Of a DNA stretch of 64,000 nucleotides, positions 1 to 24,783 are shown one piece after another. Source of the DNA: an uncultured Hyphomicrobiales bacterium (GTDB lineage: Bacteria > Bacteroidota > Ignavibacteria > Kapaibacteriales > UBA7675); assembly GCA_964445695.1 (NCBI GenBank), contig CAYULF010000028.1, positions 7,103 through 71,102 of the forward strand, read 5' to 3'. The translations under genes and the position numbers were made by a program. A model generated the notes under the pieces. The model was given only the letters and a program-made list of their open reading frames with translations, did no database searches and had not been told where the DNA came from. The first letter of the stretch is position 1, and each line of letters begins with the position of its first letter.

Positions 1-508
1 CCGAATCGTAGAAGTAGCGGCGATTGCTCAGCGCAATCAGACCGTTCGTTGAGACGTAAAAACTGTCGTAACGGATACCGTTAAAATAAAACGGAAACCC
101 GATGCGCATCGGCCCCGCAAAGGCGTTGTCGGTTGAGTCGTCTTTGTTGCCCGGATTGCGGAAGTACATTTGTCCTTCCTCAAACGAATCCCAATATTCC
201 GCCGGAAACTGGTTCGGGCCTGAGATAATGCGACGCCAGGTACCACGCTCAGTCGTGGTATCGACAAAGAGCTCCGACGGCTTGGGCGTATAGGGATCGC
301 CGGCGCCGTCTTCACTGTCCACAATGTAATAACCGGTCGAGATCGGCGGCGAGGTGCGCGGCCAATCCGCTTCGGTGTCGAAAGGTTGAGGATAGGACGC
401 TCCCGCGCTTCGCCTCAACAGCTCATCGGCCGAGCCTTTTCCGCCGGCAAGCAATGGGATACTGCCGAGCAAGGTCAGGGCCAAAACAGCCAGAAATGCA
501 CGTTTCAT
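1..508 (-). CDS. 5' part (169 codons, runs off left edge) of a fourth ~1500-aa secreted surface-protein paralog; near-identical to the N-terminus of 11362-15870
   Basis: Not in the ORF track. Hand translation from the ATG at 508 gives MKRAFLAVLALTLLGSIPLLAGGKGSADELLRRSAGASYPQPFDTEADW...GFPFYFNGIRYDSFYVSTNGLIALSNRRYFYDS. It is collinear without gaps with 15363-15870, and a GGAG SD lies upstream. Confidence 0.95.
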   Translation of the reverse strand, partial: MKRAFLAVLALTLLGSIPLLAGGKGSADELLRRSAGASYPQPFDTEADWPRTSPPISTGYYIVDSEDGAGDPYTPKPSELFVDTTTERGTWRRIISGPNQFPAEYWDSFEEGQMYFRNPGNKDDSTDNAFAGPMRIGFPFYFNGIRYDSFYVSTNGLIALSNRRYFYDS

Positions 509-1042
509 AAAACACTCCAAATGTGCAGGTCATATTCAATTTGTTTAATCATCTGGGCTTACGGATGTCATCGCTCTGCAGGGTTTAACCTGCGCGGGTG
601 TTCGAGGCGTTAATCATCACCTTCAATCACACGGGGTGGTTGTATCGTGGTCCGGCTTCGTTCTGCACGACGCAGACAAGCCGACCATCCGGTCGCGTGT
701 GACTCCGCAACTGACCGCGTGCAGGAAACTCTACGCGGTCACTCTGTTAACTGGTGTTTCATGCCGGCCTCCGTGACTATTAACGTTTTGTGTGTGGAAC
801 TGTGGCTGGTACAGAGGCACAGAACCGCATCTCCGGCTCCGTTGTACAACAACAGACCGGATGACTCAAGGTCCGGGCAATATGATCTGAAATTCGGGCG
901 GTAATTGTCTTGCAGGCATTGATCACGTGCTACGGGCGGAGGGCGCGCAGATCAATGGTCCACAATTTAAACGGGCAAGATTTAAACAAACGGCGCTGGT
1001 CGGGCGGCTGTTCCAGCATCTGAGGGTATGGTTCGGCGATGG

Positions 1043-1068
1043 AACACAGAGACGCGCGTCGGGTTACA
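1043..1068 (-). promoter_or_regulatory. Conserved motif TGTAACC-N14-GTGTT (ECF-sigma-like promoter candidate), upstream of the paralog starting at 508
   Basis: Plus strand has AACAC at 1043-1047 and GGTTACA at 1062-1068. The same spacing is seen upstream of all four paralogs. Confidence 0.7.
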
Positions 1069-1107
1069 GTTGATCTATAAAAAGGATTTTCACACGGTGG
1101 AATTATT

Positions 1108-1169
1108 CTGAGCGCTTCGCTTCCTTCGCACGGCTCGGCAGCTTGCTCTACTATTTTGTTTGTCATTGA
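1108..1169 (-). repeat. Dispersed intergenic three-block motif, copy 1 (TGACAAACA-N9-AGCAAGC-N20-GCGAAGCGCTC)
   Basis: The same three blocks in the same order recur at 51488-51541 and 54284-54340. Confidence 0.7.
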
Positions 1170-1326
1170 GTGGCATGTGACCGGCCTGTGCACTTGTTTA
1201 CGGCGGGTTGGCAGATTCACCGGGAGGCTTGAGACTTATCTCTGCGCGACGAACAAGATAATCGCGCCAAGCCTGAGGCCGCCGCAGCGGCTAGGCCTCA
1301 AAGCGCTGTTTAAAACGCACAGCCTG

Positions 1327-1368
1327 AAAAATAGCACGTCGCCCCGATGTTTGGATCGGGACGACGTG
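1327..1368 (-). terminator. Intrinsic terminator of the 1399-5883 gene
   Basis: Hairpin CACGTCGtCCCGAT-ccaaac-ATCGGGgCGACGTG followed by CTATTTTT on the minus strand, 30 bp after the stop codon. Confidence 0.8.
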
Positions 1369-1398
1369 TATGCGCGAGTGTTGTCTTTGAGATGATGT

Positions 1399-4300
1399 TT
1401 AACGCAATACCTGCAGCACCTGCACCTTGTGTAGTTTACCAATGGTCAATCGACAGAAATAAGCGCCGGCCGCTACCTCCGCCCCATTGTCGTCACGCGT
1501 ATCCCAGGCTATGCTGTGCCGCGGGTCGGCAGACAACACGCCGTCGTGAAGAACGCGAACGGGATTTCCGAGTGCATCATAGAGTTCGAGTCGCACGTGC
1601 GATGCGGACGGAATGTTAAATATTATATCGGTTCCGGACCGGCAGGGATTTGGCGTGTTCGTCAGTTCCAGGTCATCGGCAAAATCGTAACTCACAACAA
1701 CTGAAGCAGAGAACTCTGTAGTTCCGTCGTAGTCGACCTGGCGCAGGCGGTATTCGTACGTTGCGCCGCGCTGCGCTTCGGCATCAAGGAAGTCGTAGTG
1801 CTGTTTAATTGTCGAAGAGCCATGTCCCTGTACAAAGCCCAGTGAATTAAAGTCGTTATGGCTGCCGGCGGGCCGGCGTTCGACGTAGAACCCGGCATTG
1901 TTTAACTCGGACGCCGTATTCCACAGAAGCTCAACACCGGACGGCGGCGCGGCAAAGCCCGCAAAGTCAAGCAGTTCTACCGGCTTGAATTCATTCGTGT
2001 AAATCGGCGGATCGGCGAAGTCGCGGAAACCGGTGTACAGGCGCAGCATGGGAATCCAGCTGCCGCGGCTGAAAGTGTTAATCTCGCCAACTTGTCCGGC
2101 GTGTGTCAGGTGCGCGTACCCGGGATTGCCGATGTTTGGTGTGAAGTCGCCGAACTCAAAACTCCCCGGGTCGTTTTCGTACAGAAAACGGCGACCGTTG
2201 AGCAGATCGTTGGCCCGGCTCATTTCCCGCAATCCTTCCTCCAATAGAATACTCAGACCGGAAACGCCGAGCTCGGGTGTTGTTCCATAATTGAGCGTCT
2301 GCATGCCCATGCGATGCGCGGAACCGCCCAGTTCAAAACCGCGCGAATCGAGCTGACTGATGTAGAGCCAGTAAACACCGGGTTCGAGAATGAGCGGCTG
2401 CGGCAACAGGTAGGTGCCGTAGGCATCAAACAGTTTATCGGTTGTTACAGAATCGCCGGCGGCGTCCAGGTCAAAGTCGCCACGCTTGCGGGTTGTGACG
2501 GAACCCGTTAACGTAACCGCCGCAGGCGCGCCCGAGTTTGAACGATACATGCCGAACTCCACCAGGTCGGCTTGCGTATTGAGCCCGCCAAAAAAAGCCT
2601 GGTAGCCCAGAATAGTATCGGGTTTGTCAATGTCAAATCTGACGAATATCCGACCGGGACCGTCGCCACCGTCCGCGCCATAGGCGCTGCCTGAATTAAA
2701 CAAGGCGCTGCTTTGTGCGCCGAGGTTAATCCCCTTGCCCGCCACGCCCGAAAATGCCGGGACGTCGTTGCGTCCCTGAACCTGCGGATGGTCGTGTGCA
2801 ATGAAGTTGTTAAACTGCAGGTCGTAGAAATCATGCACAAAGTCGTTCAGTTCATTGCCGTCTCCACCCGGCAATATCAACCGCGCACAAAGCTGATAGC
2901 GACCTGGCCTGGTATTCTGGCCATGCCACCTCGGAAAAACCTTAACGGTCTGTGTCTCACCGCGCAGAAAAGGCAGCGTCTGAGCGCGTGAGTACACCGT
3001 GCGTAAAAGCGGATCGCCGCGCTCCATAATCTGCACCCAACAGGCAAAAGCGCGGCTGGGCGATTCACTGTTGTTAACAATTGTCACCAGCGGCCGCAGG
3101 CAATTGGCGACGTTGGCCGGAAATGCCGTCTTGGCAATACGTTCGATTTCGACGCTGCTCACTTCCAGATCGACACCTTCTTTGTCAGTCAAGATGGCCA
3201 CGTTGTCGACAAAAAAGTCGTCGGCGTCGTCGCGAGGATAAGCCGGCAGACCGTTGTTTTGCGCTTTGACGGCGAACCTGACGCGCAGCAATGACTGGCC
3301 ATCCTGCGCCGCTTTTAACATAAAGCTCGGGATTTCAACAAAACCTTTGTTAAAGACAAAGTCCTTGCCCGTGTCGAAGGGAAAGTAGCGCAGCCCCTGA
3401 GCCACGGTCAACGATGAATCGCGATCCTGTTCGCTGAAGCCGCGGCCATACCCGCCGCCGCCGAAAATTGTCAGCGCCGGATTGTCCGTAATCGGGTTTT
3501 CAGGGTCCCGTGAATTGTAGTGAACACTCCAGCCGTCATCCGGAATGTTAACCAGACTGTTTAATCCCGAAGCGTCGGGATAGGCCAGGTGAACTTCCAG
3601 CTCATCCGGCTGCTGAACCGGCGTCGTTGTCCAGTCACTGTTTTGAATTACGCGCGCTTCCGGCCCCACGCGCAGTTCATCCGACCATCCGCGATCAAAG
3701 GTATTGGACGGCGGCCGCCCTGTGCGTTGATACGAAAAGGATAACAGCGCAGTCTCCGCGTCGCCCAGGTCAATGGGATAAGAAATCAGTTCATCGCCGT
3801 CCGGCGCCAGATCGCTGCCGTCCAGATCGAGGCGGTTGAGCCGCATGACGGGCGAATCATAACTTAAAGTGAAGTTCTCTTCCACATCGACCCTTTCGCG
3901 CGGCGGCGGCGGATGAAATGTATTTGCCGTCCCGTCTACAACTTCCACGCCCTCGGAGCGCCAGATGCCGGCATTGGGAAGCGGCCCGGTTTGTTTTGTG
4001 TAGTCAAAATCCGAGGCATTGTCATACAATCCGTTCAGAACCCGCATCCCGTAGACTTGCACTTTTTTAACATTGTCGAAATTCCACGGCTCGGGGTACT
4101 CCAGACCGTTGCAGGCGTAAGGTTCAGCCAACGCCGAAAAACTCAGCCGACCAAAGTGCTCCGGCTTTCCCTGCATCAGATCTTCCACCGGCGGAAAAGT
4201 CACTTCAACAAAGGCATAGGGCGGCACGCCGTTGCCGTTAAACACAAGCGGCCGACCGGCGTGATCAATCAGTCGCACGCCGCTGTTCTCGGGGTCGGCA

Positions 4301-5883
4301 AGGGCGGCGCTGTCGACGCATTGAATGTACGTAGCAATGGTTTGATTCGCGCGCAGATCATTCGTCAGTCGATACGACACCAGGAAGTTGATGTCCTGAG
4401 CCTGATAGTTAACACCGTCCGGTCCCTGGATGTCGTTTGAAAGATTCTGGAAGACCGCGACCGGCTGAAAACTGCTCAGATCCTTGTTTCCCGGTACAAC
4501 TTCAAAGTGGTCAGGATCTTCGGCTGAAACAGAATACGAGCCATCGAGTGGGTTCCTGCCGTAGAGGCGCAGGCTGACGGTCCGCAGCACATTGCGCAGT
4601 TGTGCAAATTGCACAGCCGTTGATGCTCCCATAACATTCCGGGTCTGACGTTGGTACTCGGTCTCACGCAGAAACACCTGACCGTTGTGCACCGCTTCCG
4701 TGTATTGTGAATAACGCCGCACCTCGCCCTGTGAGTCGCGGTAACGCGCCTTGCCGCGCACGCCTACAGTGGCATTCCGGCGCAGAATCGCGGCGGGATT
4801 CAGCTGTCGGCCATTAACCTCGACCTCGCTCACCGAATAACGCTCCGGAACAATTGCGATCGCGCCGTTATCGTGTTTTAAGGTGATCTGGGCGCTGATG
4901 GAAAAGTTTGGCGTAGCTGCGCCGGGACGGATGTTTGCTTTAAAGTCGATATCCGGCAAGGGCTGGTTGGGATGTTCTTTTTTACCGAGAGGCGAAAGGT
5001 TAACAAAGTAGATGGTCAGCTCCCGCCCGTCACGCGAACGACGGTACCAGACCTGACCGTAATCTTCCACGCGGTTGGTCTGACTGTTAAACTGCGAGAG
5101 ATGCCAGTCGTCCCAGAACGGCGCAATAATCGGCGCATCATCAATCAGGGCGGAGCCGTTGATTGCATCGTCATTCAGAGCCGTGTTGCGCGGCGAACGG
5201 ATACCGCCAAGCGGGTTGTGAACGTCGCCACCACAGGCCACGTGCAGAAAACCCCAGTCGTCGGCCACGGCATCGTTAAGTCCTTTTGTGAACTGTGCGT
5301 CGGTGCGCGGACGCGTGTCGTCGCTTTCATCGTCCCAGGCCGTTGCAGCGCCCGCGGGAATTGTTCGCTGCCCACTCTCATCGTAGTGGTAGCGCCGATT
5401 ACTGAGCGCGATCACGCCATTGCTCGAAACGTAAAAACTGTCGTAGCGCACGCCGTTGAAGTAAAACGGAAATCCAATCTTGATCGGACCCGCAAACGCA
5501 TTGTCGGTTGAATCGTCGGCATCGCCCGGATTGCGGAAATACGCATGTCCTTCCGGGTGCGTTGTCCAGTGCTCAGATGGAAATTGATTTGGACCTGAAA
5601 TGATCCGATACCAGGTGTCCACTTCTTCGTCAAGCGAATGCAGCAGTCTGGTCGGATCGGGAACGTGACGTGATTCCGACGGGTCTTCGCTGTCGAGCAG
5701 ATAGTAGCCGGTCGAAATTGCCGGTTCATCACGCACCCAGTCGGATTCGGCGTTGAATGGTCCTGGTATCGATTGACCGCCAGTATAAACCGTAGTTTCG
5801 TCGCTCGCCTTTTTGGCCTTAAGCGGAATTGCCATGGATAGGGCAAACAAACACAGGATAGAAATGCGTAGCAGATGTGTCAT
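1399..5883 (-). CDS. Large secreted surface protein (~1494 aa) with T9SS type-A/FlgD-Ig-like C-terminal domain; paralog C
   Basis: Signal peptide MTHLLRISILCLFALSMAIPLKA, with a GGAGG SD before the ATG at 5883. N-terminal IGFPFYFNG...YVSSNG...IAPFWDD block. C-terminal PVEL..F.G...LW.TASELNNAGFYVERR Ig module, then TPNP...IFNIP...LELYDALG...WDTRDDNG...GAYFCRL. Confidence 0.92.
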   Translation of the reverse strand: MTHLLRISILCLFALSMAIPLKAKKASDETTVYTGGQSIPGPFNAESDWVRDEPAISTGYYLLDSEDPSESRHVPDPTRLLHSLDEEVDTWYRIISGPNQFPSEHWTTHPEGHAYFRNPGDADDSTDNAFAGPIKIGFPFYFNGVRYDSFYVSSNGVIALSNRRYHYDESGQRTIPAGAATAWDDESDDTRPRTDAQFTKGLNDAVADDWGFLHVACGGDVHNPLGGIRSPRNTALNDDAINGSALIDDAPIIAPFWDDWHLSQFNSQTNRVEDYGQVWYRRSRDGRELTIYFVNLSPLGKKEHPNQPLPDIDFKANIRPGAATPNFSISAQITLKHDNGAIAIVPERYSVSEVEVNGRQLNPAAILRRNATVGVRGKARYRDSQGEVRRYSQYTEAVHNGQVFLRETEYQRQTRNVMGASTAVQFAQLRNVLRTVSLRLYGRNPLDGSYSVSAEDPDHFEVVPGNKDLSSFQPVAVFQNLSNDIQGPDGVNYQAQDINFLVSYRLTNDLRANQTIATYIQCVDSAALADPENSGVRLIDHAGRPLVFNGNGVPPYAFVEVTFPPVEDLMQGKPEHFGRLSFSALAEPYACNGLEYPEPWNFDNVKKVQVYGMRVLNGLYDNASDFDYTKQTGPLPNAGIWRSEGVEVVDGTANTFHPPPPRERVDVEENFTLSYDSPVMRLNRLDLDGSDLAPDGDELISYPIDLGDAETALLSFSYQRTGRPPSNTFDRGWSDELRVGPEARVIQNSDWTTTPVQQPDELEVHLAYPDASGLNSLVNIPDDGWSVHYNSRDPENPITDNPALTIFGGGGYGRGFSEQDRDSSLTVAQGLRYFPFDTGKDFVFNKGFVEIPSFMLKAAQDGQSLLRVRFAVKAQNNGLPAYPRDDADDFFVDNVAILTDKEGVDLEVSSVEIERIAKTAFPANVANCLRPLVTIVNNSESPSRAFACWVQIMERGDPLLRTVYSRAQTLPFLRGETQTVKVFPRWHGQNTRPGRYQLCARLILPGGDGNELNDFVHDFYDLQFNNFIAHDHPQVQGRNDVPAFSGVAGKGINLGAQSSALFNSGSAYGADGGDGPGRIFVRFDIDKPDTILGYQAFFGGLNTQADLVEFGMYRSNSGAPAAVTLTGSVTTRKRGDFDLDAAGDSVTTDKLFDAYGTYLLPQPLILEPGVYWLYISQLDSRGFELGGSAHRMGMQTLNYGTTPELGVSGLSILLEEGLREMSRANDLLNGRRFLYENDPGSFEFGDFTPNIGNPGYAHLTHAGQVGEINTFSRGSWIPMLRLYTGFRDFADPPIYTNEFKPVELLDFAGFAAPPSGVELLWNTASELNNAGFYVERRPAGSHNDFNSLGFVQGHGSSTIKQHYDFLDAEAQRGATYEYRLRQVDYDGTTEFSASVVVSYDFADDLELTNTPNPCRSGTDIIFNIPSASHVRLELYDALGNPVRVLHDGVLSADPRHSIAWDTRDDNGAEVAAGAYFCRLTIGKLHKVQVLQVLR

Positions 5884-6161
5884 CCCAGCCTCCGTAGCTG
5901 TTAACATTTTCGGTGAACAATGCGGTCAATGCAACGGCAGGAACCTGCGACAACTTAGCCGTTGCAAACCAGCGGGCGGACGGCTTGACGTCCGATTAAA
6001 GCGATCTGAATGTGGGACCGGCGGCTGTAGCTGCATCATTGAAGCAGTCGAACGGGCGTCTGGATTGCAATTCAATGACACTCAGTCAATCCGCGCAACT
6101 GTTTAAAAGCCGGTTTTGGGCAAGCGGCTTTTCAGTATCGGAATGTATGGTACGGCGACTG

Positions 6162-6187
6162 AACACCGGGGCGGCGCTGTGGTTACA
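6162..6187 (-). promoter_or_regulatory. Conserved motif TGTAACC-N14-GTGTT upstream of paralog C
   Basis: AACAC at 6162-6166 and GGTTACA at 6181-6187; 35/48 ungapped identity of 6145-6192 with 1026-1073. Confidence 0.7.
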
Positions 6188-6290
6188 GCTGAATTAACCG
6201 AGCGGCTGGATTTATTGCACTTAAACAAATTGCCTATGGGCAACTGCGCGAATCCAGGGTGCGGGAATATCAAACTCTTCCGGACCTGGG

Positions 6291-6338
6291 AAAAGTAAAG
6301 ACAGAGGAGGTCCCCGTGTTTCTTACAGCGGGGACTTC
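6291..6338 (-). terminator. Intrinsic terminator of the 6371-10891 gene
   Basis: Stem GAAGTCCCCG/CGGGGACCTC (6307-6338) followed by a T-rich run on the minus strand. Confidence 0.65.
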
Positions 6339-6370
6339 ATTGCACAACTTAATGCTCGCCGGTCTGCCGC

Positions 6371-9300
6371 CTATCTGACGACATTGAGCATGCGTACGAC
6401 CGTTTGTTCGCCAACCGTCAAGCGGCAAAAATACAAGCCTGCGGCTACCTGCAGGCCGCGCTCATCGCGGGTATCCCATTTTACCGTAGTGCGCGCAGTC
6501 GGGCGCATTTGACCTTCAGTTAACAAACGTATTGTATTGCCGAGCACATCCTGTATTTCCAAACGAACGGCAGCCGACGCCGGCAGACCAAAAGAGATAT
6601 CCGTTGACTCACTGATCGGATTGGGTGTATTTCTCAGGTCAAGTGAGTCGGCGTAGTCGTACTCAACCGTGACGGAACGCGAATACTCGACAGTCCCGTC
6701 GTAGTCGACCTGACGCAGGCGGTATTCGTAGGTCGTCCCTCGCTCCACTTTGGAATCGAGCAGGTCGTAGTTTATCTGCCGCGTTGCCGTTCCTGCGCCT
6801 TTGACAAAACCAATGGAATTAAACTCGGCACTGTACCCGACTGTGCGTCGCTCAACATAAAAGCCCGCATTGCCAGACTCCGAAGCAGTCAGCCAATACA
6901 ATTCAATTCCCCTTGGCGGCAGAGCTTCACCGTCAAAACTGGCGAGCTCAACCGGCGGAATAATTGGACAGTTGAAGGGATCAATGTAGATCGGTGGATC
7001 AGCCCAGGTCCTGGGACCAAAATAGGGTCTCAACATCGGAATCCACGAACCGCGTGTATACGTTCGCAGTCCATTGATTTCTCCGGCGTGATCCAGGTGT
7101 GCGTAGGCCGGATTTCCGACGGTCGGAGTGAATTGTTGCCAGTCGTCGCCGAAAAGACTGTTAACATACAAGAAGTGGTTGTCGTTGATCAACTCTCCCT
7201 GGCGCGTGCGCGTGCGGAAGTTGTGTGACAGCATCATGCCGGCGCTGCTGCCGCCCGGCTCCGGTTTTGTGGTATAATTTAAGGTCTGCATTCCCATGCG
7301 GTAGGCCGAAGCTCCCAGTTCAAGACCTTCCTGACCAGTTTGTGAAATTACCATCCAATATTTTCCGGGTGGTAAAACAAGCTCCTTGGGCAACAGATAT
7401 GTCGCATACTCGCCAAATATCAGATCGTCGGTAGCGCCGGTAGACGGCTGTTCACGTGCATCCAGATCGTAGCGCCCGCGTTCACGCCGCATGAAAGATC
7501 CCGGAAGTGGGTTTGGAGCCGGTATTCCCCCCTCGTTTTCGTGAATCGCAAAGTGAACTTCCTGTGTATTGTCTGCAAGAGCCGCAAAATATGGCTGATA
7601 ACCGAGAATTGTATCCTGCCGCGACAGTCCAAACTTAACTGCAATCCGTCCGCTCACACTACCGGCATCATCGCCGAACGCCGTCGCGGATGAAAAACGC
7701 CCGCTGTTGTATGCCCGCAGATTTATTCCCTTGCCTGGCGTCTCTGCAAATGATTCAGCGCTGTTTGTACCGACAATGTCCGGTTTATCATAGGCGAGAA
7801 CATTGGCAAAATCCAGAGTGTAAAAACTGCTCGTGATGTCGTTTAAGGGATTTGGATCTCCACCGGGGACAAGTACCTTTGCTGCTGCAAAGTATGTCAG
7901 CGACCGGAACTGACGCGAATTCCAAATCGGAAATATCTTGACCGTTTCAGTTTTGGCGCGTAAAAAAGGCAGGGTCTGAACCCAACAATAGGCGATCTTT
8001 TCGGTTCCGCCGCCTTTTTCACTCAGCATCGCGACAGCACTAAAAGCACGCGACGGCAGATTGCTGTTGTTCACGATCTTGATCTGAATCGGAATCCCTT
8101 CGGCCTGGCTGGCCGGAAATGCCGAGTATGGAAAAGCTTCGTTCTGTTGACCGATTGTCACCGTGCTCATTTCCAGATCAGGTGTTTCTGTCGGCGGCAT
8201 GACCACGACATTATCGATGTAAAAATCGTCAAAGTCGTCGCGCGGATATTTAACTATTCCATCGTCTTTTGCTTTGACTTTTAACTTGAATCTGAAATAG
8301 CGATTGCCGTCGCTGGGCGCATTGAGTATATAGTCCGGAACACAGACCCAGGCTTTAACAAAAGCGGGGTCGCTGCCCGCATCGAGCGAGTCGTAACGCA
8401 GTCCCTGTCTTCGCGTCAGAGCCGAATCAGGATTGTCTTCGTGAAAACCGCGCCTGTACCCGCCTCCGCCAAAAACGGTAAATGCGGGATTGTCGACAAT
8501 CGGATTGTCGAGATCGGCAATGTTGGGATGCACGCTCCAGCCGTCATCAGGAATATTGACAATGTTGTTAAAACTATCAGGGCTGGGATTGGCAAAGTGC
8601 AGTTCCAGTACGTCCGGCTCCTGCAGCGGTGCAGTCGATTCCCATTGTCCATCTTCCACCACGCGCACCTCGGGTCCGATGCGAATCTCATCAGACCAGC
8701 CGCGATCAAACGTATTGGCCGGCGGAATACCGGTGCGCTGATACGAAAAAGATAAAACAGCGGAGGATCGTCCGCGCAAATCAATCGGAAATGAGATGAG
8801 CTCATCGCCGCCCGGTGTCTGGTCCCGGCCATTCTCATCGATGCGATTCATTCGCATGACTGGTCCAACCAGCGTAATATCAGGATTGCCGGGCGCTTCC
8901 ACCACATCGATCGGCGGCGGCGGATTGAACGTATGTTTCCTGCCGTCGACCGCTTCAGCACCATGTGAAACCCATTTGTAACTGTCGGGAATCGTACCAT
9001 TACGCCTGGTGAAATGGAAGCCGGAAACGTTATCGTAGAAGCTGCTTAACACCTGCAGCCCGTGCAGCCGAATACTGCAGGTATTGTCAAACGTCCACTC
9101 TTCCCCAAGCTTAACATCGGTGCAAGATAGATTCTGCGCCAACGCGTCCGCACGCAGCCGCCCAACAAGGTCAGGCTGGAAATTTGTTTCAAAGTCCGGG
9201 AAAGCAACCTGGACAAATCCATATGGAGGCACGCCGTTGCCGGTAAACTCCAGAGCCTCGCCCTTGTAGTTAACAAGTTGTACACCCGTTAAATCGCTGT

Positions 9301-10891
9301 TGGTGAGCGCCGCGCTGTCAACACAAATGCTGCGATTGTATACCAATGTATCTTGTACCACTTCATTACGAATCTGAAGGGTCGCGCGGAACCGGGCGTC
9401 CTGTTCACGATAATTGATACCGCCGACACCCTGGATGTCGTTGGACAGGTTCTGATACGTCACAATCGGCCGGAAGCTACCCAGCAAGGTGTTTCCGATC
9501 AGAAGTTCATAATTGTCCGGATCCGCAACCGGAATGGTGTACTGGAGAGTTTGCGGATCTTTCATCAGGAATTCAATCCGCACAGCTCTGAAAAGATTCC
9601 GGTATTGTTTAAAACGCAAGGCATTGTTGGGACCAAGCACATTCTCAATCGCATGGGGTGTATCCGTTTCCCGGACAAATACCTGCCCGTCGCGTAATCC
9701 TTCGGTATACTGCACATAGCGATTGACTTCCCCTTTGTTGTCCTTGTAGCGTGCCTGTCCACGAAGACCGACGGTTGCATTCTGCCGAACGATAGCGGAT
9801 GAACTCACGGGGCGATTGTTTACAATGAGGATCGGTGAGGAGTACTTGTGAGTCAGAACGACGACGGAGCTATCCTTGCTGTTTAAGGTCACGTGTGCAT
9901 TAACGGTAAACGCCACACGCTGCTCACCCGTCTGCGCATCATTTGCAAACACAATGTCAGGCAAGCCCGCATCGGGATGTTGTTTGGCGCCGATCGGAAC
10001 GAGATTGACAAAGTAGATTGTCAATTCTTTGTTGTCCGCTGATCGCCAGTACCACACCTGACCAAAATCTTCCGCCTCATTGGTGTTAATGTTAAACTGG
10101 GGAAGCTGCCAGTCATCCCAAAAAGCGGCAATCAAGGGCGTTTCTTCAATCATACCGGACTGTGCAAAACCATCGGCATCCAGCGAGGTATTGCGCGCAG
10201 CCCGAATTCCGGCAAGCGGATCGTCGGGATCGCCGCCGCAGGCCACGTGATAATACCCCCAATCGTCCGCGACGGCATCGTTAACACCACGTGTATTCTG
10301 GGCGTCATTGCGGACACGCGTATCGTCGCTCTCCGAGTCCCAGGCCGTGGATTTTCCTTCCGGTATTGTTCGTTCGCCGTTGGCATCGTAATAGTAACGC
10401 CGGTTGCTCAGCGCAATCAGTCCGTTGCTCGACACGTAAAAACTATCGTATCGCACACCGTTAAAATAGTACGGGAAGCCTATGTTGATCGGCCCCGCAA
10501 AGGCATTGTCGGTTGAATCTTCCCGATCTCCCGGATTTCTGAAATAAGCAAAACCCTCTTTGTTAGTCGTCCAGTGTTCAGCCGGAAACTGATTCGGCCC
10601 CGAGACAATTCTGTGCCAGGCTTCGGGTTCTTTATCGAGGGATCGCAGAAGATCCACCACGTTCGGACGTAGCGGCGTGTCCAACGGATCTTCGCTGTTG
10701 AGCATGTAATAACCAGTGGAAATCGCCGGTTGGTTGCGCTCCCAGTCAGCCTTCAGGTTAAACGGCCCGGGAAGCGATTGTCCGCTGGTTGCAGCGGCGA
10801 CGGGATCGCCTGCGTTTTTGTCGGCGCAAAGAAGATTAAACGGGGAAATCAATAAAGCGCTGAGGAATAAACAATGTAGCAGTCGTCCCAC
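6371..10891 (-). CDS. Large secreted surface protein (1506 aa) with T9SS-type CTD; paralog B
   Basis: GTG start with GGAGG SD and a signal peptide. Collinear along its whole length with 1399-5883 and 11362-15870 (STGYY..SED, SGPNQFP, DDSTDNAFAGP, FQNLSNDIQG, GNGVPPY, FSYQRTG, RGSWIP, PVEL module). Confidence 0.93.
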   Translation of the reverse strand: MGRLLHCLFLSALLISPFNLLCADKNAGDPVAAATSGQSLPGPFNLKADWERNQPAISTGYYMLNSEDPLDTPLRPNVVDLLRSLDKEPEAWHRIVSGPNQFPAEHWTTNKEGFAYFRNPGDREDSTDNAFAGPINIGFPYYFNGVRYDSFYVSSNGLIALSNRRYYYDANGERTIPEGKSTAWDSESDDTRVRNDAQNTRGVNDAVADDWGYYHVACGGDPDDPLAGIRAARNTSLDADGFAQSGMIEETPLIAAFWDDWQLPQFNINTNEAEDFGQVWYWRSADNKELTIYFVNLVPIGAKQHPDAGLPDIVFANDAQTGEQRVAFTVNAHVTLNSKDSSVVVLTHKYSSPILIVNNRPVSSSAIVRQNATVGLRGQARYKDNKGEVNRYVQYTEGLRDGQVFVRETDTPHAIENVLGPNNALRFKQYRNLFRAVRIEFLMKDPQTLQYTIPVADPDNYELLIGNTLLGSFRPIVTYQNLSNDIQGVGGINYREQDARFRATLQIRNEVVQDTLVYNRSICVDSAALTNSDLTGVQLVNYKGEALEFTGNGVPPYGFVQVAFPDFETNFQPDLVGRLRADALAQNLSCTDVKLGEEWTFDNTCSIRLHGLQVLSSFYDNVSGFHFTRRNGTIPDSYKWVSHGAEAVDGRKHTFNPPPPIDVVEAPGNPDITLVGPVMRMNRIDENGRDQTPGGDELISFPIDLRGRSSAVLSFSYQRTGIPPANTFDRGWSDEIRIGPEVRVVEDGQWESTAPLQEPDVLELHFANPSPDSFNNIVNIPDDGWSVHPNIADLDNPIVDNPAFTVFGGGGYRRGFHEDNPDSALTRRQGLRYDSLDAGSDPAFVKAWVCVPDYILNAPSDGNRYFRFKLKVKAKDDGIVKYPRDDFDDFYIDNVVVMPPTETPDLEMSTVTIGQQNEAFPYSAFPASQAEGIPIQIKIVNNSNLPSRAFSAVAMLSEKGGGTEKIAYCWVQTLPFLRAKTETVKIFPIWNSRQFRSLTYFAAAKVLVPGGDPNPLNDITSSFYTLDFANVLAYDKPDIVGTNSAESFAETPGKGINLRAYNSGRFSSATAFGDDAGSVSGRIAVKFGLSRQDTILGYQPYFAALADNTQEVHFAIHENEGGIPAPNPLPGSFMRRERGRYDLDAREQPSTGATDDLIFGEYATYLLPKELVLPPGKYWMVISQTGQEGLELGASAYRMGMQTLNYTTKPEPGGSSAGMMLSHNFRTRTRQGELINDNHFLYVNSLFGDDWQQFTPTVGNPAYAHLDHAGEINGLRTYTRGSWIPMLRPYFGPRTWADPPIYIDPFNCPIIPPVELASFDGEALPPRGIELYWLTASESGNAGFYVERRTVGYSAEFNSIGFVKGAGTATRQINYDLLDSKVERGTTYEYRLRQVDYDGTVEYSRSVTVEYDYADSLDLRNTPNPISESTDISFGLPASAAVRLEIQDVLGNTIRLLTEGQMRPTARTTVKWDTRDERGLQVAAGLYFCRLTVGEQTVVRMLNVVR

Positions 10892-11162
10892 ACAGTCCTC
10901 CAGTCAAAATTTCGTCAGCCGGTTAAAGTGATCTGTTTGCGGCAGCCTGGTACCACATCTCAACTTGGCTCTGTACTGCAAGCCGCACTTCATGTTACTC
11001 ACGCCATGCAGTTCGGTGCATGAAAGTTCGAATTGCAACTCGCTTTCAACTTCGCGGTTTCGCGAAAATTGACAGTAGCTTTGTTGAACACTCAACAACA
11101 ATCGAGAAGGCTGTTCATCAAGGTGGGGGGCAAACTTGAGGGATTGCGTCGGGTCAGTGGTT

Positions 11163-11188
11163 AACACGTATTACCGGTCGAGGTTACA
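11163..11188 (-). promoter_or_regulatory. Conserved motif TGTAACC-N14-GTGTT upstream of paralog B
   Basis: AACAC at 11163-11167 and GGTTACA at 11182-11188. Confidence 0.7.
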
Positions 11189-11292
11189 GCTTGACAGGCA
11201 TAGTTGACGCGGATTGTGGTTCTGCAGAATTGAGAGTTAATACATTTAATGTGTGCGCTGAAGAAACATACAAACATGTGCAAAAGTGTTTA

Positions 11293-11331
11293 AAAATCGA
11301 AAACCCCCGAACATTTCTGTCCGGGGGTTTT
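11293..11331 (-). terminator. Strong intrinsic terminator of the 11362-15870 gene
   Basis: Minus strand reads AAAACCCCCGGACA-GAAA-TGTTCGGGGGTTTT then CGATTTTT. Confidence 0.9.
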
Positions 11332-11361
11332 CTTATCTATTTACCGTAGAACGGCGATGAA

Positions 11362-14300
11362 TTACTTCACCACGTTCAGGGTACGAACGATCGTCTCTTC
11401 GCCGATAGTCAGGCGGCAGATGTAAGCACCTGCAGCAACTTCGGCACCCGTGTTGTCGCGGGTATCCCAGGAGATCGTTTTCTCAGCAGCCGGACGCATG
11501 TCGCCGTCGTGCAGAACGCGGACGGAGTTGCCAAGTACGTCGATGATTTCGAGGCGTACATTGGAAGCGCTCGGGACGCTGAAGGTAATGTCGGTCATTT
11601 CCGTAAACGGATTCGGCTTGTTGGCCAGTTGCAGAGCGTCGGCATAGTCGTATTCCAGCGTGATAGCACGCGAGAAGGAGACCGAGCCGTCAAAGTCAAC
11701 CTGGCGCAGACGGTATTCGTACGTTTCACCGCGGAATACGTCGGCATCCAGGAAGTCATACTTGACCGGAGCCGTCGAGGAACCAGCACCTTGAACAAAG
11801 CCGAGCGACAGGTATTCGCTGTCGGAGCCGGCCATGCGGCGCTCAACGTAGAAACCGGCGTTGTTGGTTTCCGAAGCGGTCGCCCAGTACAGTTCGATAC
11901 CGGCGGGCGGCAGCGACTCACCATCGAAGTCGGTCAGTTCGACCGGAGCGAATTTCTCGCACTCTTCGAAGTCAACGTACTGCGGCGGGTTGCTGAAGGC
12001 GCGCTCACCAAAGTACGGGCGGATCAGCGGAATCCAGCTACCGCGTGTGTAGGTGCGATAGAAGACAACCTGACCGGTGTGCGCAAGGTGCGCATAACCC
12101 GGGTTGCCGATGGTCGGCGAGAACTGCGACCATGCACCACTGCGATAGGTGTTTTCGTATGCGAACCAGCTACCGTTGATCAGCTGACCGGAGCGATTGC
12201 GCTCGCGCAGCGTTTTGTCAATGATAAGGCTGGTACCGCTGACACCAAGGACCGGAATCGTCGTGTAGTTCGTCGTTTGCATACCCATGCGGGAAGCCGT
12301 AGCACCAAGTTCGAAACCTTCCGTACCCATCTGAGCAACGGCCATCCAGTAGATACCCGGCGAAAGAACAACTTCTTTCGGCAGCAGGTAGGTGGCGTAC
12401 TCATTGAAGATCGGGTCGGACTGCGAAGTAGCCGGACGGCCTTGAGCGTCGAGGTCATAGAGACCACGCTGACGCAGCATGCGCGTACCGGAAACTTGCG
12501 TTGCCGACGGGCTTCCGCCGCCGTCTTCGTAGATCGAGTAGGTTGTATTCAGAACATCGGAGTTAAGGCTACCGAAGTGAGCCTGATAACCGAGGATCGT
12601 ATCCTGCGTGAACAGTTCGAACTTCATCGCGATCTGACCGGAACGGTTACCAGCATCGGAGCCAAAGGCCGTCGAAGCCGAGAAACCACCGCTGTTGGCG
12701 CCGGAGAGGTTAAGACCTTTACCGGTAGCCTGCGAGAATTGCGGAACGTCGTTCGTACCGGTCGGGTTCGGCGGATCGTAAGCAAACGCCTGACCGAAGA
12801 CCAGGTTGAATTCACCGTAGGTCGTGTCGTTCAGAGGCTCGGGATCGCCGCCGGGGATGCGCATACGAGCAGCCAGGATATAGCGGCCCGGACGCGTCTG
12901 GCGAGCATTCCATACCGGGAAGGCTTTAACCGACTCGGTTTGAGCGCGCAGGAACGGCAGCGTTTGTGCACGGCAGTATACGCGCAGTTCATCGGAAGCA
13001 CCGCGTTCTTTGATCAGAACCTGAACAGCGAAAGCGCGCGAGGGAATGATGCTGTTGTTGGACAGTTTCACTTCAACCGGAACGCTGGAAGCCTGGCTGG
13101 CAGGAACCATCGTGTACGGCCAGTTCACGCGAACAAGGCTGATTTCCAGGTCGGGCGTTTCTGTCGGGAACAGGATCGCCGTGTTGTCAATGTAGAAGCG
13201 GTCATCGTCATCCTGCGGGTTCGGCGGAACACTGTTACGGCTCGCGCGAACGCTCAGTTTGAAGCGGAAGAAACGAGCGCCGTCGTTCGGGGCGTCGAGG
13301 ATGTAGCTCGGGATTTCAACAAAGACTTTGTTGAATTCCTGGTCTTTACCATCGTCGAACTGATCGTAGCGCAGACCGTCCGCATTCGTCAGAGCCGAAT
13401 CGGAGTTCATCTCATGCCAGCCGCGACGGAAACCACCACCACCAAAGACGGTGAAGGACGGGTTGTTCGAGATGGGCTTGGCAGGATCAGCCAGGTTGGG
13501 GTGCGTGCCCCAGCCGCGCGGCTCAATGTTCGTGATGTTGTTGTAAGCATCCGGGCTCGGGTTGGCAAAATCCAGCTCAAGCAGGTCAGGACGCTGTACC
13601 GGAGACGTCGTTTCCCAGTTACCGTCCTGAACGACACGGATCTCCGGGCCGATCAGAGTAGCGTCGGACCAACCGCGGTCAAACGTGTTGTCCGGCGGAA
13701 CACCGGTACGCTGGTACGAGAAGGACAGGATCGCCGAGGAGCGACCGCGCAGGTCGACAGGGAACGAACGGAGTTCGTCACCGTTCGGAGCCAGGTCATT
13801 ACCGGCAAGGTCAAAGCGATTCATGCGGATAACAGGCGAGTTCAGAGTTACGAACTCGTTGTTGGCCGACGAGAATTCACCTCTCGGCGGCGGCGGGTTG
13901 AAGGTGTTGGCGTCGCCGTCAACAGCCTCAGCGCCCAGCGAGACCCACTTGTTCACTGACGGAAGGGTACCTTCGCGACGTGAGAAGTTAAAGTCCGTAA
14001 CGTTGTCCGAGAAGCTGTTGAGGATGCGGATACCAAACAGACGGATACGCGTGGTATCGTCAAAGGCCCATTGATCGCCGTAACCTGCACGCGAACCGGA
14101 ACATTGTGCCGGCTCACCGATAACCAGCGAGGTCAAACGACCAATCTGGTTCGGCAGGAACTGGTTCGTTTTGTAGGCCGGGAATTTGACTTCCACAAAG
14201 CCGTACGGCGGAACGCCGTTGCCGTTGAACGGCACGGACTCACCAGCGAAGTTGACAAGACGCACACCCGAAACGTTCGAGTTGGCCAGCGCAAAGCTGT

Positions 14301-15870
14301 CAACACAAACCTGACGGCTGTAGACGATCGTGTCATTCAGAATGTCATTCTGGATTTTGAAACGGGTGCGGAAGGTCAGATCCTGTTTCTGGAAGTTGAC
14401 ACCGCGCGTGCCTTGAATGTCGTTCGTCAGGTTCTGGAAGATGGCCACAGGTTGCAGCGCACCGAGAAGCTGATCGCCGACGAGAAGCTCGTAGTTGTTC
14501 GGGTCGGAAACCGAGATGTTAAACTTGCCGTCGGTCGGATCCGGAATCAGATAGTTGATACGAACCACGCGCAGCACGTTTTTGTACTGCTTGAATTTGA
14601 TGGCAAGGTCAGTGTTCGGCGTCGAAGTCTCGGAGTTAACCGGACCAACAACAAACACGTTGCGGTTCCACAGGTAGGTCGAGTGCTGCGTATAGCGCTG
14701 CTCCTGGAAGTTGTCATCGATGTAGCGGGCTTTACCACGCACACCAACGGTCGCATTGAAGCGCACCACGGCCCAGGGGTCGACGGGACGGTTGCCCACC
14801 ACAAACAGCGGCGGGTTTTTGAAGCGGTACAGGAAGTTGATCGTCGAGTCCGAACGATTCAGAGTCACCTGTGCGTTCACATAGAACGCCGGGCTGCCTT
14901 CACCGATGCGGTTGTTCGCGCCAAAACTGATCGTACCGCCATTGGGGTTGGTTTTCAGGCCAATCGGCGAGAGCTGCAAATAGTAGATCGTCAGACGATC
15001 GCGGCTGACCGAACGCTTGAACCATACCTGACCGTAGTCTTCTTTCAGGTTCAGTTCGTTGTTGAACTGCGAAAGTTGCCAGTCATCCCAGAACGGCGCG
15101 ATAATCGGCGCGTCCTGAATGATGCTCGTCGTGTTGATACCGGGGCCAGGGCCGAAGTCCGTCAGGTTGGAGTTCGTAGGCCAGCGGATACCGCCGGTCG
15201 GGTTGGACGGATCACCGCCGCAAGCCACCCAGGTGTAACCCCAGTCGTCGGCGATAGGATCATTCAATCCATCGGCGTCGGGATCATTACGCGTACGGGT
15301 ATCGTCGCTTTCGGGATCCCATGCGGTCGGCTGACCTTCGGGAATCGTGCGCTCGCCCGTTTCCGAATCGTAGAAGTAGCGGCGATTGCTGAGCGCAATC
15401 AGACCGTTCGTTGAGACATAAAAACTGTCATAACGAATGCCGTTGAAATAGAACGGGAAACCGATACGCATCGGACCCGCGAAGGCATTGTCAGTTGAAT
15501 CGTCTGCGTTACCGGGATTGCGGAAGTACATGTGTCCTTCCTCAAACGAATCCCAGTATTCCGCCGGAAACTGGTTCGGGCCGGAGATAATGCGACGCCA
15601 GGTACCACGCTCGGTGGTGGTATCGACGAACAGCTCAGAGGGCTTCGGCGTATAGGGGTCGCCGGCGCCATCTTCACTATCCACAATGTAATACCCGGTG
15701 GAGATCGGCGGCGACGTGCGCGGCCAATCAGCCTCGGTGTCGAAAGGTTGAGGGTACGACGCTCCCGCGCTTCGCCTCAACAGGTCATCGGCCGAGCCTT
15801 TTCCACCGGCAACCAGAGGGATGCTACCGAGAAAAGTCAGGGCCAAGACAGCTAGAAATGCACGTTTCAT
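11362..15870 (-). CDS. Large secreted surface protein (1502 aa) with T9SS-type CTD; paralog A, codon-optimised (candidate major surface/S-layer-like protein)
   Basis: Start re-set to MKRAFLAV at 15870 based on the GGAG SD and the match to the start at 508. Signal peptide and the same domain order as B and C. TTC/AAC/TAC/GGT-rich codons. Confidence 0.93.
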   Translation of the reverse strand: MKRAFLAVLALTFLGSIPLVAGGKGSADDLLRRSAGASYPQPFDTEADWPRTSPPISTGYYIVDSEDGAGDPYTPKPSELFVDTTTERGTWRRIISGPNQFPAEYWDSFEEGHMYFRNPGNADDSTDNAFAGPMRIGFPFYFNGIRYDSFYVSTNGLIALSNRRYFYDSETGERTIPEGQPTAWDPESDDTRTRNDPDADGLNDPIADDWGYTWVACGGDPSNPTGGIRWPTNSNLTDFGPGPGINTTSIIQDAPIIAPFWDDWQLSQFNNELNLKEDYGQVWFKRSVSRDRLTIYYLQLSPIGLKTNPNGGTISFGANNRIGEGSPAFYVNAQVTLNRSDSTINFLYRFKNPPLFVVGNRPVDPWAVVRFNATVGVRGKARYIDDNFQEQRYTQHSTYLWNRNVFVVGPVNSETSTPNTDLAIKFKQYKNVLRVVRINYLIPDPTDGKFNISVSDPNNYELLVGDQLLGALQPVAIFQNLTNDIQGTRGVNFQKQDLTFRTRFKIQNDILNDTIVYSRQVCVDSFALANSNVSGVRLVNFAGESVPFNGNGVPPYGFVEVKFPAYKTNQFLPNQIGRLTSLVIGEPAQCSGSRAGYGDQWAFDDTTRIRLFGIRILNSFSDNVTDFNFSRREGTLPSVNKWVSLGAEAVDGDANTFNPPPPRGEFSSANNEFVTLNSPVIRMNRFDLAGNDLAPNGDELRSFPVDLRGRSSAILSFSYQRTGVPPDNTFDRGWSDATLIGPEIRVVQDGNWETTSPVQRPDLLELDFANPSPDAYNNITNIEPRGWGTHPNLADPAKPISNNPSFTVFGGGGFRRGWHEMNSDSALTNADGLRYDQFDDGKDQEFNKVFVEIPSYILDAPNDGARFFRFKLSVRASRNSVPPNPQDDDDRFYIDNTAILFPTETPDLEISLVRVNWPYTMVPASQASSVPVEVKLSNNSIIPSRAFAVQVLIKERGASDELRVYCRAQTLPFLRAQTESVKAFPVWNARQTRPGRYILAARMRIPGGDPEPLNDTTYGEFNLVFGQAFAYDPPNPTGTNDVPQFSQATGKGLNLSGANSGGFSASTAFGSDAGNRSGQIAMKFELFTQDTILGYQAHFGSLNSDVLNTTYSIYEDGGGSPSATQVSGTRMLRQRGLYDLDAQGRPATSQSDPIFNEYATYLLPKEVVLSPGIYWMAVAQMGTEGFELGATASRMGMQTTNYTTIPVLGVSGTSLIIDKTLRERNRSGQLINGSWFAYENTYRSGAWSQFSPTIGNPGYAHLAHTGQVVFYRTYTRGSWIPLIRPYFGERAFSNPPQYVDFEECEKFAPVELTDFDGESLPPAGIELYWATASETNNAGFYVERRMAGSDSEYLSLGFVQGAGSSTAPVKYDFLDADVFRGETYEYRLRQVDFDGSVSFSRAITLEYDYADALQLANKPNPFTEMTDITFSVPSASNVRLEIIDVLGNSVRVLHDGDMRPAAEKTISWDTRDNTGAEVAAGAYICRLTIGEETIVRTLNVVK

Positions 15871-16009
15871 AGAATGCTCCAAAAGGTGCAGGATAAAGAA
15901 ACAATGTTTATTCACACAGATTTACAGATTTCGTCGCTCTGCAGGTACTTGGGTTGCTCGGGTATTAACCCGTTAAAAATCATCGATTTAGAGCCAAACT
16001 CCGCGACAG

Positions 16010-16035
16010 AACACACAATAATTTTGCGGGTTACA
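16010..16035 (-). promoter_or_regulatory. Conserved motif TGTAACC-N14-GTGTT upstream of paralog A
   Basis: AACAC at 16010-16014 and GGTTACA at 16029-16035. Confidence 0.7.
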
Positions 16036-16140
16036 AAAAGTTTTCCCCAATCTTATCAGTTCTTTGCGAATTTTTTGAATACCTCAATTTCAGGCTGTAA
16101 ACGGCATGCAACAAGCTTGGAAGTTATGTAGGCCTGCCTT

Positions 16141-16182
16141 TAAAATCAAATGGGGCCATGTGCAAATTTTCCACATGGCCCC
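16141..16182 (-). terminator. Intrinsic terminator after the NarL-type regulator
   Basis: Perfect 11-bp stem GGGGCCATGTG/CACATGGCCCC (16152-16182) followed by ATTTGATTTTA on the minus strand. Confidence 0.75.
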
Positions 16183-16221
16183 TGATATCTCGTTGAAGTC
16201 AGCGATTTTGTCTGCTTGAAT

Positions 16222-16866
16222 CTAGTCGGTTACCTTCTCAAGCAGCCTATGCTTCAGAGCGTACTGCATCAACTCGGAGTTGGTGGCGAGTTTCATCTTC
16301 TCCAGAATGCGCTTGCGATACGTGCTGATCGTTTTCACCGACAGGTGCAGTTCCTTTGCAATACCTCCTACAGACTTGCCGGAACCGATCTGGCATAAAA
16401 TCTGGAACTCGCGGTCTGACAGAGTTTCGTGGGCGGCCAGATCCTCGGATTCACGGGCGGCATCCTCAATCAGTTTTTCCGCCAGAGATGGGCTCACATA
16501 GCGCCCGCCGGACAGGCACTTGCGAATAGCCGTCATCAGTTCGATTGTGTCTGCTGATTTGTCGACGTAACCACTGGCACCGGCTTTGAGCGCCCGCACG
16601 GCGTAACGCTCTTCCGGCTGAGCGCTTAGAATCAGAATGGGCATGTCCGATTTTGCACTGCGAAGGCTTTTCAGGAGATCGAGCCCTGCACGCCCCGGCA
16701 TGGAGAGATCAAGCAGAACGATGTCAAAATCCCGCTTTGCTATTTGCGCAAGCGCTTCTTCCCCATTTTGAGCTTCGGTGACTTCCATATCCATACTATA
16801 TGTCAGGAAGAGTTTCAGACCGCTGCGAAGAATCTGATGGTCGTCTGCTACCAGTGCTGTGTGCAT
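16222..16866 (-). CDS. NarL/FixJ-family response regulator (REC + LuxR HTH)
   Basis: VADDH, phospho-acceptor in LLDLSMPG, GASGYVDK, LSDREFQIL...IAKELHLSVKTISTYRKRILEKM. Confidence 0.95.
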   Translation of the reverse strand: MHTALVADDHQILRSGLKLFLTYSMDMEVTEAQNGEEALAQIAKRDFDIVLLDLSMPGRAGLDLLKSLRSAKSDMPILILSAQPEERYAVRALKAGASGYVDKSADTIELMTAIRKCLSGGRYVSPSLAEKLIEDAARESEDLAAHETLSDREFQILCQIGSGKSVGGIAKELHLSVKTISTYRKRILEKMKLATNSELMQYALKHRLLEKVTD

Positions 16867-20002: not shown

Positions 20003-20021
20003 ATCAGGCCATGCTCCCGGA

Positions 20022-22115: not shown

Positions 22116-22230
22116 GTGTCTACGTTCTACTTCCCTGTTGGCGGAAAGGAAACCTGCTTGTTTAAGCGGAGTGACTTCAACCGTAAGCCTGCGTGCGTCA
22201 CTCACTTGCGTTGACAGCCTGTCTTTCTCC

Positions 22231-24763: not shown

Positions 24764-24783
24764 AATCCGTAGAACTACGTATT
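24764..24783. promoter_or_regulatory. 9-2-9 inverted repeat AATCCGTAG-AA-CTACGTATT (candidate NarL-family operator)
   Basis: Imperfect palindrome; 24761-24783 matches 41979-42001 at 22/23 nt. Confidence 0.7.

Follow-up and report, generated by a model that had tools for sequence, protein, structure and literature searches.

What do four adjacent genes for ~1,500-residue secreted proteins contribute to one bacterium? We addressed this question for a 64-kb stretch of contig CAYULF010000028.1 (hereafter the window; all coordinates are positions within it), which carries in its left ~16 kb, on the minus strand, three complete paralogs, A, B, and C, and a partial fourth one, P. The initial annotation of this array had described a lineage-specific family of surface coat proteins, exported by the type IX secretion system (T9SS) and expressed as alternatives or in combination. 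In our best reading, C is instead a master gene, while A, B, and P are intact, selectively maintained minor isoforms of low expression. With regard to function, we hold with slightly better than even confidence that the four paralogs represent the dominant T9SS-exported cell-surface protein of the Kapabacteria, and that C forms a coat or surface layer (S-layer)-like covering.

The copies of the array are clearly unequal in their codon usage. The effective number of codons (ENC) is 38.6 for C, compared to 48.9 for A and 53.7 for B. Relative to the housekeeping genes of the window, C is enriched in GGT (0.61 vs. 0.20) and CGT (0.40 vs. 0.21), which together account for 0.52 of its Gly and Arg codons. 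It also favours GCT, GTT, TTC, AAC, ATC, and CAC, and GGG, GGA, CGG, AGA, ATA, and CCA are almost absent. A and B lack such an expression-type bias, as does the fourth copy of the array in a sister metagenome-assembled genome (MAG; see below), where GGT and CGT reach 0.24. The same pattern was found in a survey of 79 family genes. The lowest ENC of a locus belonged to its single or first copy in 42 cases, the GGT+CGT value of this copy exceeded the median of its neighbours in 71, and additional tandem copies were codon-unbiased across loci.

We compared substitution rates at nonsynonymous (dN) and synonymous (dS) sites between the copies and their orthologs in the sister MAG. C is 99% identical in protein sequence (dN 0.006, dS 0.19, omega [dN/dS] 0.03), A is 91% identical (dN 0.049, dS 0.47, omega 0.10), and B 83% (dN 0.093, dS 0.72, omega 0.13); the neighbouring genes show dS values of 0.39-0.61. 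Since omega ranges from 0.03 to 0.13, all copies compared are under purifying selection, and none of these genes is a pseudogene. C is constrained at synonymous sites as well.

Expression was assessed from assembled metatranscriptome contigs rather than read counts, with contig depth serving as a crude measure. In two salt-marsh metatranscriptomes, contigs mostly 95-99% like C tile positions 11574..15791. Down to a likeness threshold of 80%, no contig was found on P, A, B, or three genes upstream of the array (a response regulator gene, an OmpA-family gene, and U457). The remaining 40 kb of the window were matched by a single contig, located on the gene U772 (23354..23566). DNA contamination as the source of this RNA was rejected, because carry-over would cover the neighbouring genes too; these are 88-93% similar in the sister MAG and were uncovered at thresholds of 80-85%.

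The contrast is also seen at two other loci of the family. The single-copy ortholog at locus L015 is covered from end to end at a depth of 10-26 in four lake metatranscriptomes from three studies, and the depth is near zero over the 7-8 kb on each side. The contigs begin and end at the gene borders, indicating a monocistronic mRNA of ~4.7 kb. At the two-copy locus L013, the depth of copy 1 is 323-350 in three runs and 68-84 in a fourth, whereas copy 2 stays at 2-8 and the flanks at 2-30. At these loci, mRNA of the ortholog is 20-50 times more abundant than that of flanks or second copies. In the three runs of highest depth, the copy-1 allele (L013 positions 9943..14649) differs from that of the MAG by ~8%, mostly at third codon positions, whereas the flanks are ~99% alike. 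Therefore, strains carry different alleles of the major copy, and the replacement is confined to the major gene. An apparent absence of copy 1 from these runs at 95% likeness was rejected on the same grounds, since this divergent allele has a depth above 320 at 80%. Overall, the expression contrast is large and is seen in independent studies. An S-layer gene should be among the most highly expressed genes of the cell: at both the RNA and codon level this applies to the major copy, but not to A, B, or the P-type copy. The copies are therefore not interchangeable, and the initial reading needs correction on this point, while a structural or abundant role at the surface fits the new expression evidence.

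The organization of the array is largely as first described. The complete genes share the same orientation, are collinear end to end, and are pairwise 50.5-53.7% identical in amino acid sequence; A and B have 63-74% nucleotide identity with C, without long identical tracts. In its visible part, P shares 97% of its amino acids with the N-terminus of C; their DNA identity, which takes in ~70 nt before the start, is 87%. The array has a repeat period of ~5 kb, with intergenic gaps of 890, 463-487, 470, and ~350 nt. The likely start of A is the ATG at 5883 with GGAGG just before it, B starts at a GTG behind GGAGG, and the true start of C is the ATG at 15870 behind GGAG, the position at which the initial annotation already let the array end.

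The sister MAG, Co_bin.359, provides the missing end of the array. Its contig JAUIKM010000012 is collinear with window positions 1..20885 (88.6% nucleotide identity) and contains exactly four copies, bounded upstream by the same response regulator gene and downstream by a HIT gene; the ortholog of P is a complete gene of 1501 aa, followed by HIT. Therefore, the array of the window very probably consists of four genes, in line with the earlier count of at least four. Upstream of P, a distal part of ~340 nt is homologous to the upstream region of A, and holds a relic A-type GGAGG ribosome-binding site (RBS) and ATG followed by a 7-codon open reading frame (ORF), whereas the proximal ~100 nt have their homolog in the upstream region of C. 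Such a chimera points to a C-like copy recombined into the position of an older paralog. In metagenome assemblies (DNA runs X1 and X2), small contigs with raised depth lie exactly over C (11358..15361), and an 11.4-kb contig stops at window position 1. Such a breakage over C fits a collapsed C/P repeat or strain variants and would explain the fragmentation of the source contigs at this place.

A and C are clearly separate transcription units, each followed by an intrinsic terminator (Table 1). The hairpin behind B is weak and lacks a U-run, so that its function as a terminator is doubtful and transcripts may read through into A. Hence, of the three terminators and separate units initially annotated, those of A and C hold, while that of B is doubtful. 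Upstream of the promoter region of C, the response regulator gene has its own terminator hairpin at ~16152..16182, as read directly from the sequence.

As annotated initially, each copy starts with a signal peptide. Judged by eye, the N-termini of all four are of the Sec type: a basic N-region is followed by 12-15 aa of hydrophobic core and by a cleavage site of small residues rich in A and G. The complete copies end in an immunoglobulin (Ig)-like 'PVEL' domain and a FlgD-like C-terminal sorting domain (CTD). At the family level, the assignment as a T9SS type-A CTD is solid: FlgD_ig was detected in all 31 members scanned against Pfam, Por_Secre_tail in 25 (best E 1e-7), and CHU_C in 14. Moreover, the family profile matches the CTD of PorU (6za2) in the PDB at E 3.8e-6 and also FlgD Ig domains, AlphaFold2 predicts a terminal beta-sandwich preceded by the FN3-like PVEL domain, and several members are named 'T9SS type A sorting domain-containing protein' by NCBI. 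In the window, the matches lie near or under the curated cutoffs. With a cutoff of 27 bits for both models, FlgD_ig scores 27.5 (A), 21.9 (B), and 22.4 (C), and Por_Secre_tail 16-21 (B and C); TIGR04183, with a cutoff of 23 bits, scores 17.5-20.6 in all three. No T9SS component was found among the scanned proteins of the window; at least one other CTD-bearing protein, U457, lies nearby and lends indirect support. We infer that the array proteins are exported by the T9SS and attached to the surface. With generic type-A cargo (TIGR04183/PF18962, PorU CTD 6za2) they share the C-terminal beta-sandwich of ~85 aa, but they differ in a core of ~1,400 aa without a described domain and in that the window copies, taken singly, stay below CTD cutoffs.

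This core of ~1,400 residues gave no match in sequence or profile searches of Pfam, NCBIfam, and the PDB. We modelled B with AlphaFold2 as two monomer halves, based on an alignment of 54 sequences. Both models (residues 25-905: predicted local distance difference test [pLDDT] 85, predicted template modelling score [pTM] 0.79; residues 895-1506: pLDDT 86, pTM 0.66) are almost wholly beta and comprise about eight beta-sandwich or jelly-roll domains. Foldseek searches of the PDB yielded partial matches to RhoGDI/PDE-delta-type Ig domains, the Kgp K1 cleaved-adhesin domain, beta-sandwich accessory domains of glycoside hydrolases, Ig arrays of integrins, complement, and a Haloferax S-layer protein, FN3, and PorU. 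The array proteins have a pI of 4.8 and 6-10 Cys residues, and the HExxH motif was not found in them. A catalytic fold was detected neither with Pfam and NCBIfam (three proteins and 31 family members) nor with PDB profiles or AlphaFold2 and Foldseek, and whole-model Foldseek searches of both halves returned generic beta-sandwich matches only (query TM score <0.2). An enzyme in the core was rejected on this basis, in agreement with the initial remark that no catalytic motif is recognizable.

Conservation within the family is highest in the N-terminal domain, which also has the lowest dN between orthologs; the highest dN was found for residues ~423-586 of B. The many invariant polar residues of the N-terminal domain lie in DSTDNAF, NRRYxYD, SDDTR, and FWDD, and the domain contains the NIDO-like motifs FPFYFNG..YDSFYVSSNG and IAPFWDD. 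The gathering score of Pfam NIDO (PF06119) was not reached, with no match at E <= 1 in any window protein; one of the 31 family members has a NIDO match at E 0.058. Among 1.84 billion representative proteins, a profile of the domain found 131 matches, namely the family itself, a T9SS sister family of ~1,150-1,300 aa, and weak motif matches in giant repeat proteins. One distant giant protein pulled in by the motif region has a true Pfam NIDO match (E 2e-10). The likeness to NIDO is thus one of motifs, linked through this distant protein, but the array domain differs in its size of ~400 aa with long extra loops and stays under the Pfam threshold. We know of no function assigned to NIDO. As a side observation, the sister family (P0201, P0205, P0210, P0219, P0222, and others) resembles the array proteins solely in the initial ~140 residues of their N-terminal domain; P0201 and P0219, the members scanned with Pfam, end in a FlgD_ig/T9SS-type CTD.

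The distribution of the family was surveyed with one genome per species. We found 314 relatives, the best 80 of which are essentially all from MAGs of Candidatus Kapabacteria (Kapaibacterium). Hundreds of full-length members (1,480-1,660 aa) are 32-45% identical and annotated as hypothetical or, generically, as T9SS type A sorting or FlgD Ig-like domain proteins. Most loci are single-copy, with the conserved order u563, PurN, family gene, HIT, KpsF, RodZ, AtuA, DUF2279, GT2 glycosyltransferase, and PurM. About ten loci have two or three tandem copies of independent origin. The family is therefore class-wide in the Kapabacteria rather than lineage-specific, as had been proposed; lineage-specific are only the two- to fourfold tandem expansions. 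None of the conserved neighbours of the single-copy locus (u563, PurN, HIT, KpsF, RodZ, etc.) lies within the window. The sister array adjoins a HIT gene and hence sits on a remnant of the ancestral locus. Functional partners suggested by the neighbourhood were rejected, since the conserved neighbours are housekeeping genes (PurN, HIT, KpsF, RodZ, AtuA, GT2, PurM, and MetH). The recurrent upstream protein u563 looks cytoplasmic, with a Rossmann-like N-terminal motif seen by eye. Loci L015, L018, L025, L028, L029, L055, L060, and others carry the Kapabacteria-type gene in MAGs labelled Hyphomicrobiales, Patescibacteria, Bradyrhizobiaceae, Chitinophaga pinensis, or Chloroflexota, which are probably taxon mislabels; L015, L018, and L025 are among the loci that show the Kapabacteria synteny.

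How could such a protein work? It would be made with a Sec signal peptide and fold in the periplasm into about eight beta-sandwich/jelly-roll domains. The T9SS would then recognize the type-A CTD and move the protein across the outer membrane, and cleavage and attachment to the cell surface may follow by analogy with other type-A cargo. C, monocistronic and very highly expressed, would supply the bulk surface protein, most likely in the form of a coat or a covering that resembles an S-layer. The minor copies, namely A, B, and P with its likeness to C, may serve at low stoichiometry or in other conditions, possibly controlled by the adjacent LuxR-type response regulator.

The best-known precedent is found in Tannerella forsythia, where TfsA and TfsB are CTD-bearing S-layer proteins. 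Like these, the array proteins are large (>1,100 aa), beta-rich, and acidic, combine a Sec signal with a T9SS CTD, and are encoded by side-by-side, highly expressed genes. However, TfsA and TfsB are two co-assembling subunits, whereas the mRNA of the array family is monocistronic and one paralog is abundant. The array proteins also differ in their highly conserved N-terminal domain and class-wide conservation, and they are known from sequences and transcripts rather than from a lattice. No named family or PDB entry matched the core, and no relationship in sequence to TfsA/TfsB came to light, though no search aimed at it was made. The analogy drawn initially thus stands for export route, size, and abundance, but fails for the two-subunit operon, given the monocistronic mRNA and the very unequal paralogs. 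The array proteins form a new, uncharacterised family within the abundant T9SS surface cargo, to which we add that one copy dominates expression. Somewhat short of an even chance is what we would give a more detailed version of the coat reading, namely an undescribed coat or S-layer unrelated to TfsA/TfsB, T9SS-exported, with a NIDO-like N-terminus, universal in the Kapabacteria, and top-expressed, whose gene was repeatedly duplicated into a master and low-expression isoforms and whose master alleles were swapped between strains.

A coat or S-layer-like role appears to be the most economical reading, but several points weigh against it. Its support consists of genes and assembled RNA contigs, from which a lattice, surface localization, and protein abundance are at most predicted. 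All Por_Secre_tail and TIGR04183 scores of the window copies are under the curated thresholds, and FlgD_ig passes in A alone. The N-terminal domain is the most conserved one, although it should lie far from the C-terminal anchor, and its invariant polar residues are more in keeping with a site of specific binding or catalysis than with an exposed coat that evolves freely. For an S-layer protein, 32-45% is a high identity over an entire class. Finally, U772, a second secreted protein of the window with the same expression signature, could be the real coat instead.

Some of these points lead to the strongest competing explanation, which we nevertheless consider less likely: an abundant surface-anchored or secreted protein that captures or processes a substrate, with the NIDO-like N-terminal domain as a newly folded module for ligand binding or catalysis, the jelly-rolls as carbohydrate-binding or 'cleaved adhesin' modules, and paralogs differing in substrate. 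The conserved N-terminal domain, with its many invariant Asp, Ser, Arg, and Tyr residues and the lowest ortholog dN, would be accounted for, as would the partial matches of the jelly-rolls to the Kgp K1 cleaved-adhesin and glycoside hydrolase accessory domains. High expression is typical of major secreted hydrolases and binding proteins, too, and in a domain family as narrow as 131 representatives a new activity would go unrecognized. But no catalytic family or fold emerged with Pfam, NCBIfam, PDB profiles, or Foldseek, HExxH is lacking, and the conserved neighbours are housekeeping genes without linked transporter or utilization genes. Moreover, the conservation of a single copy almost throughout the class, irrespective of habitat, speaks against a niche-specific substrate.

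The array proteins could also be surface adhesins for attachment or gliding like the T9SS-exported SprB and RemA, with paralogs as alternative adhesive specificities. In favour of this, they combine Ig, FN3, and jelly-roll domains in a large, beta-rich T9SS cargo, and they occur as several paralogs near other giant surface proteins. We regard this as improbable, since the predicted structure of the N-terminal 881 residues is compact (pTM 0.79) and unlike a long repetitive filament, the CTD is of type A and that of SprB of type B, and no PorP/SprF-like partner is adjacent. A very high monocistronic expression and a uniform length of 1,480-1,660 aa are likewise unlike known motility adhesins.

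The array also resembles the sapA homologs of Campylobacter fetus and slpA/slpB of Lactobacillus, in which one dominant expressed copy lies beside nearby full-length homologs, but here no invertible promoter, inverted repeats, or recombinase was found, the copies have their own upstream regions, and they are only ~50% identical. Least probable of all are A, B, and P as silent donor cassettes for antigenic variation of C by gene conversion or promoter switching: the one expressed copy beside several weakly expressed full-length tandem homologs, the 97% identity of the visible part of P to C, the chimera upstream of P as a sign of past recombination, and the allele replacement at L013 would fit. 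However, all copies come with a start codon, RBS, and signal peptide of their own and evolve under purifying selection, no promoter-flanking inverted repeats and no recombinase were found among the scanned ORFs (some small ORFs were unscanned), A and B have no long identical tracts in common with C, dS values of ~0.5 for C and P and ~0.64 for sister copies 1 and 4 speak against recent conversion, and the second copy of L013, transcribed at the level of its neighbours, is not silent. Phase variation was rejected as well, with no close intergenic inverted repeats, no Rfam element, and no enrichment of Bacteroidetes-type -7 boxes.

From lakes and sediments to hot springs and bioreactors, Kapabacteria are widespread, and to our knowledge they are uncultured. 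A literature search for Kapabacteria together with T9SS, S-layer, cell envelope, or metaproteome returned nothing relevant. The array family appears to be their one conserved, very highly transcribed giant surface protein, with ~1,400 residues without a described domain. If the coat reading is true, a T9SS-dependent S-layer would be known from a second, independent case, and the family would provide a handle for cell capture based on antibodies or fluorescence in situ hybridization, a likely phage receptor and strain-typing locus, and a bacterial context for studying the NIDO-like fold. As a clean natural case, the master and minor copies also illustrate how expression diverges once a gene has been duplicated in tandem.

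Table 1. Features of the paralog array and its upstream border
Feature	Position	Strand	Remarks
Paralog P	1..508	-	First 169 codons, cut at left window edge
Region upstream of P	509..1398	-	Chimeric (DNA alignment)
Intrinsic terminator of A	1335..1368	-	14-bp stem, then U-run; fold z-score -4.5
Paralog A	1399..5883	-	1494 aa from ATG 5883; ORF reaches 5907; minor copy
Weak hairpin 3' of B	6310..6335	-	z -1.4, no adjacent U-run
Paralog B	6371..10891	-	1506 aa; minor copy, evolving fastest
B ~1418-1506, T9SS type-A CTD	6374..6640	-	Profile matches and AlphaFold2
B ~1315-1411, FN3/Ig-like 'PVEL'	6659..6949	-	AlphaFold2; also in neighbour U457
B ~1027-1309, jelly-roll 2	6965..7813	-	AlphaFold2
B ~906-1026, CARDB-like Ig	7814..8176	-	AlphaFold2; marginal CARDB match in 1/31 members
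B ~604-898, jelly-roll 1, ends DDxDxFYIDN	8198..9082	-	AlphaFold2; partial Foldseek matches to Kgp K1 and glycoside hydrolase accessory domains
B ~423-586, two Ig-like beta-sandwiches	9134..9625	-	AlphaFold2 secondary structure
B ~25-420, large N-terminal beta-sandwich, NIDO-like motifs	9632..10819	-	AlphaFold2, pLDDT ~90
Intrinsic terminator of C	11299..11332	-	15-bp stem, then U-run; fold z-score -6.4
Paralog C	11362..15870	-	1502 aa; ORF reaches 15915; major, highly expressed copy
Promoter and leader region of C	15871..16221	-	93.8% identical to sister MAG
Orphan LuxR/NarL-type response regulator	16222..16866	-	Pfam Response_reg and GerE; directly upstream of array, syntenic in sister MAG

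The LuxR/NarL-type response regulator that borders the array is a candidate for its regulator, judging from its position. Upstream of it, the minus strand (17213..22205) encodes U727, U457, and an OmpA-family protein of 494 aa, again syntenic in the sister MAG. U457 has the PVEL-Ig and CTD tail in common with the array proteins and is probably another T9SS cargo. The following gene, U772 (22321..24639, minus strand), encodes a secreted protein of 772 aa, rich in Gly, Thr, Asn, and Asp, with a pI of 4.05. Searches of Pfam, NCBIfam, and the PDB gave no match for it, and a CTD is not recognizable. With an ENC of 39.9 it shows an expression-type codon bias like that of C, and it is the sole other gene in 60 kb matched by a metatranscriptome contig. 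U772 may be another major surface protein. Opposite U772 and C, the plus strand contains long ORFs at 22390..24831 (813 aa), 11509..13959 (816 aa), and 14071..15414 (447 aa). These were rejected as genes, since their translations are nonsense-like and a strong codon bias removes stop codons from the opposite strand, which gives rise to long antisense ORFs as by-products. Further upstream, a giant ORF of 4,820 aa with a signal-like N-terminus (25562..40024, minus strand), whose only domain matches are GEVED and G8, is flanked by a second LuxR-type response regulator (24857..25498) on one side and by an unknown protein of 597 aa on the other.

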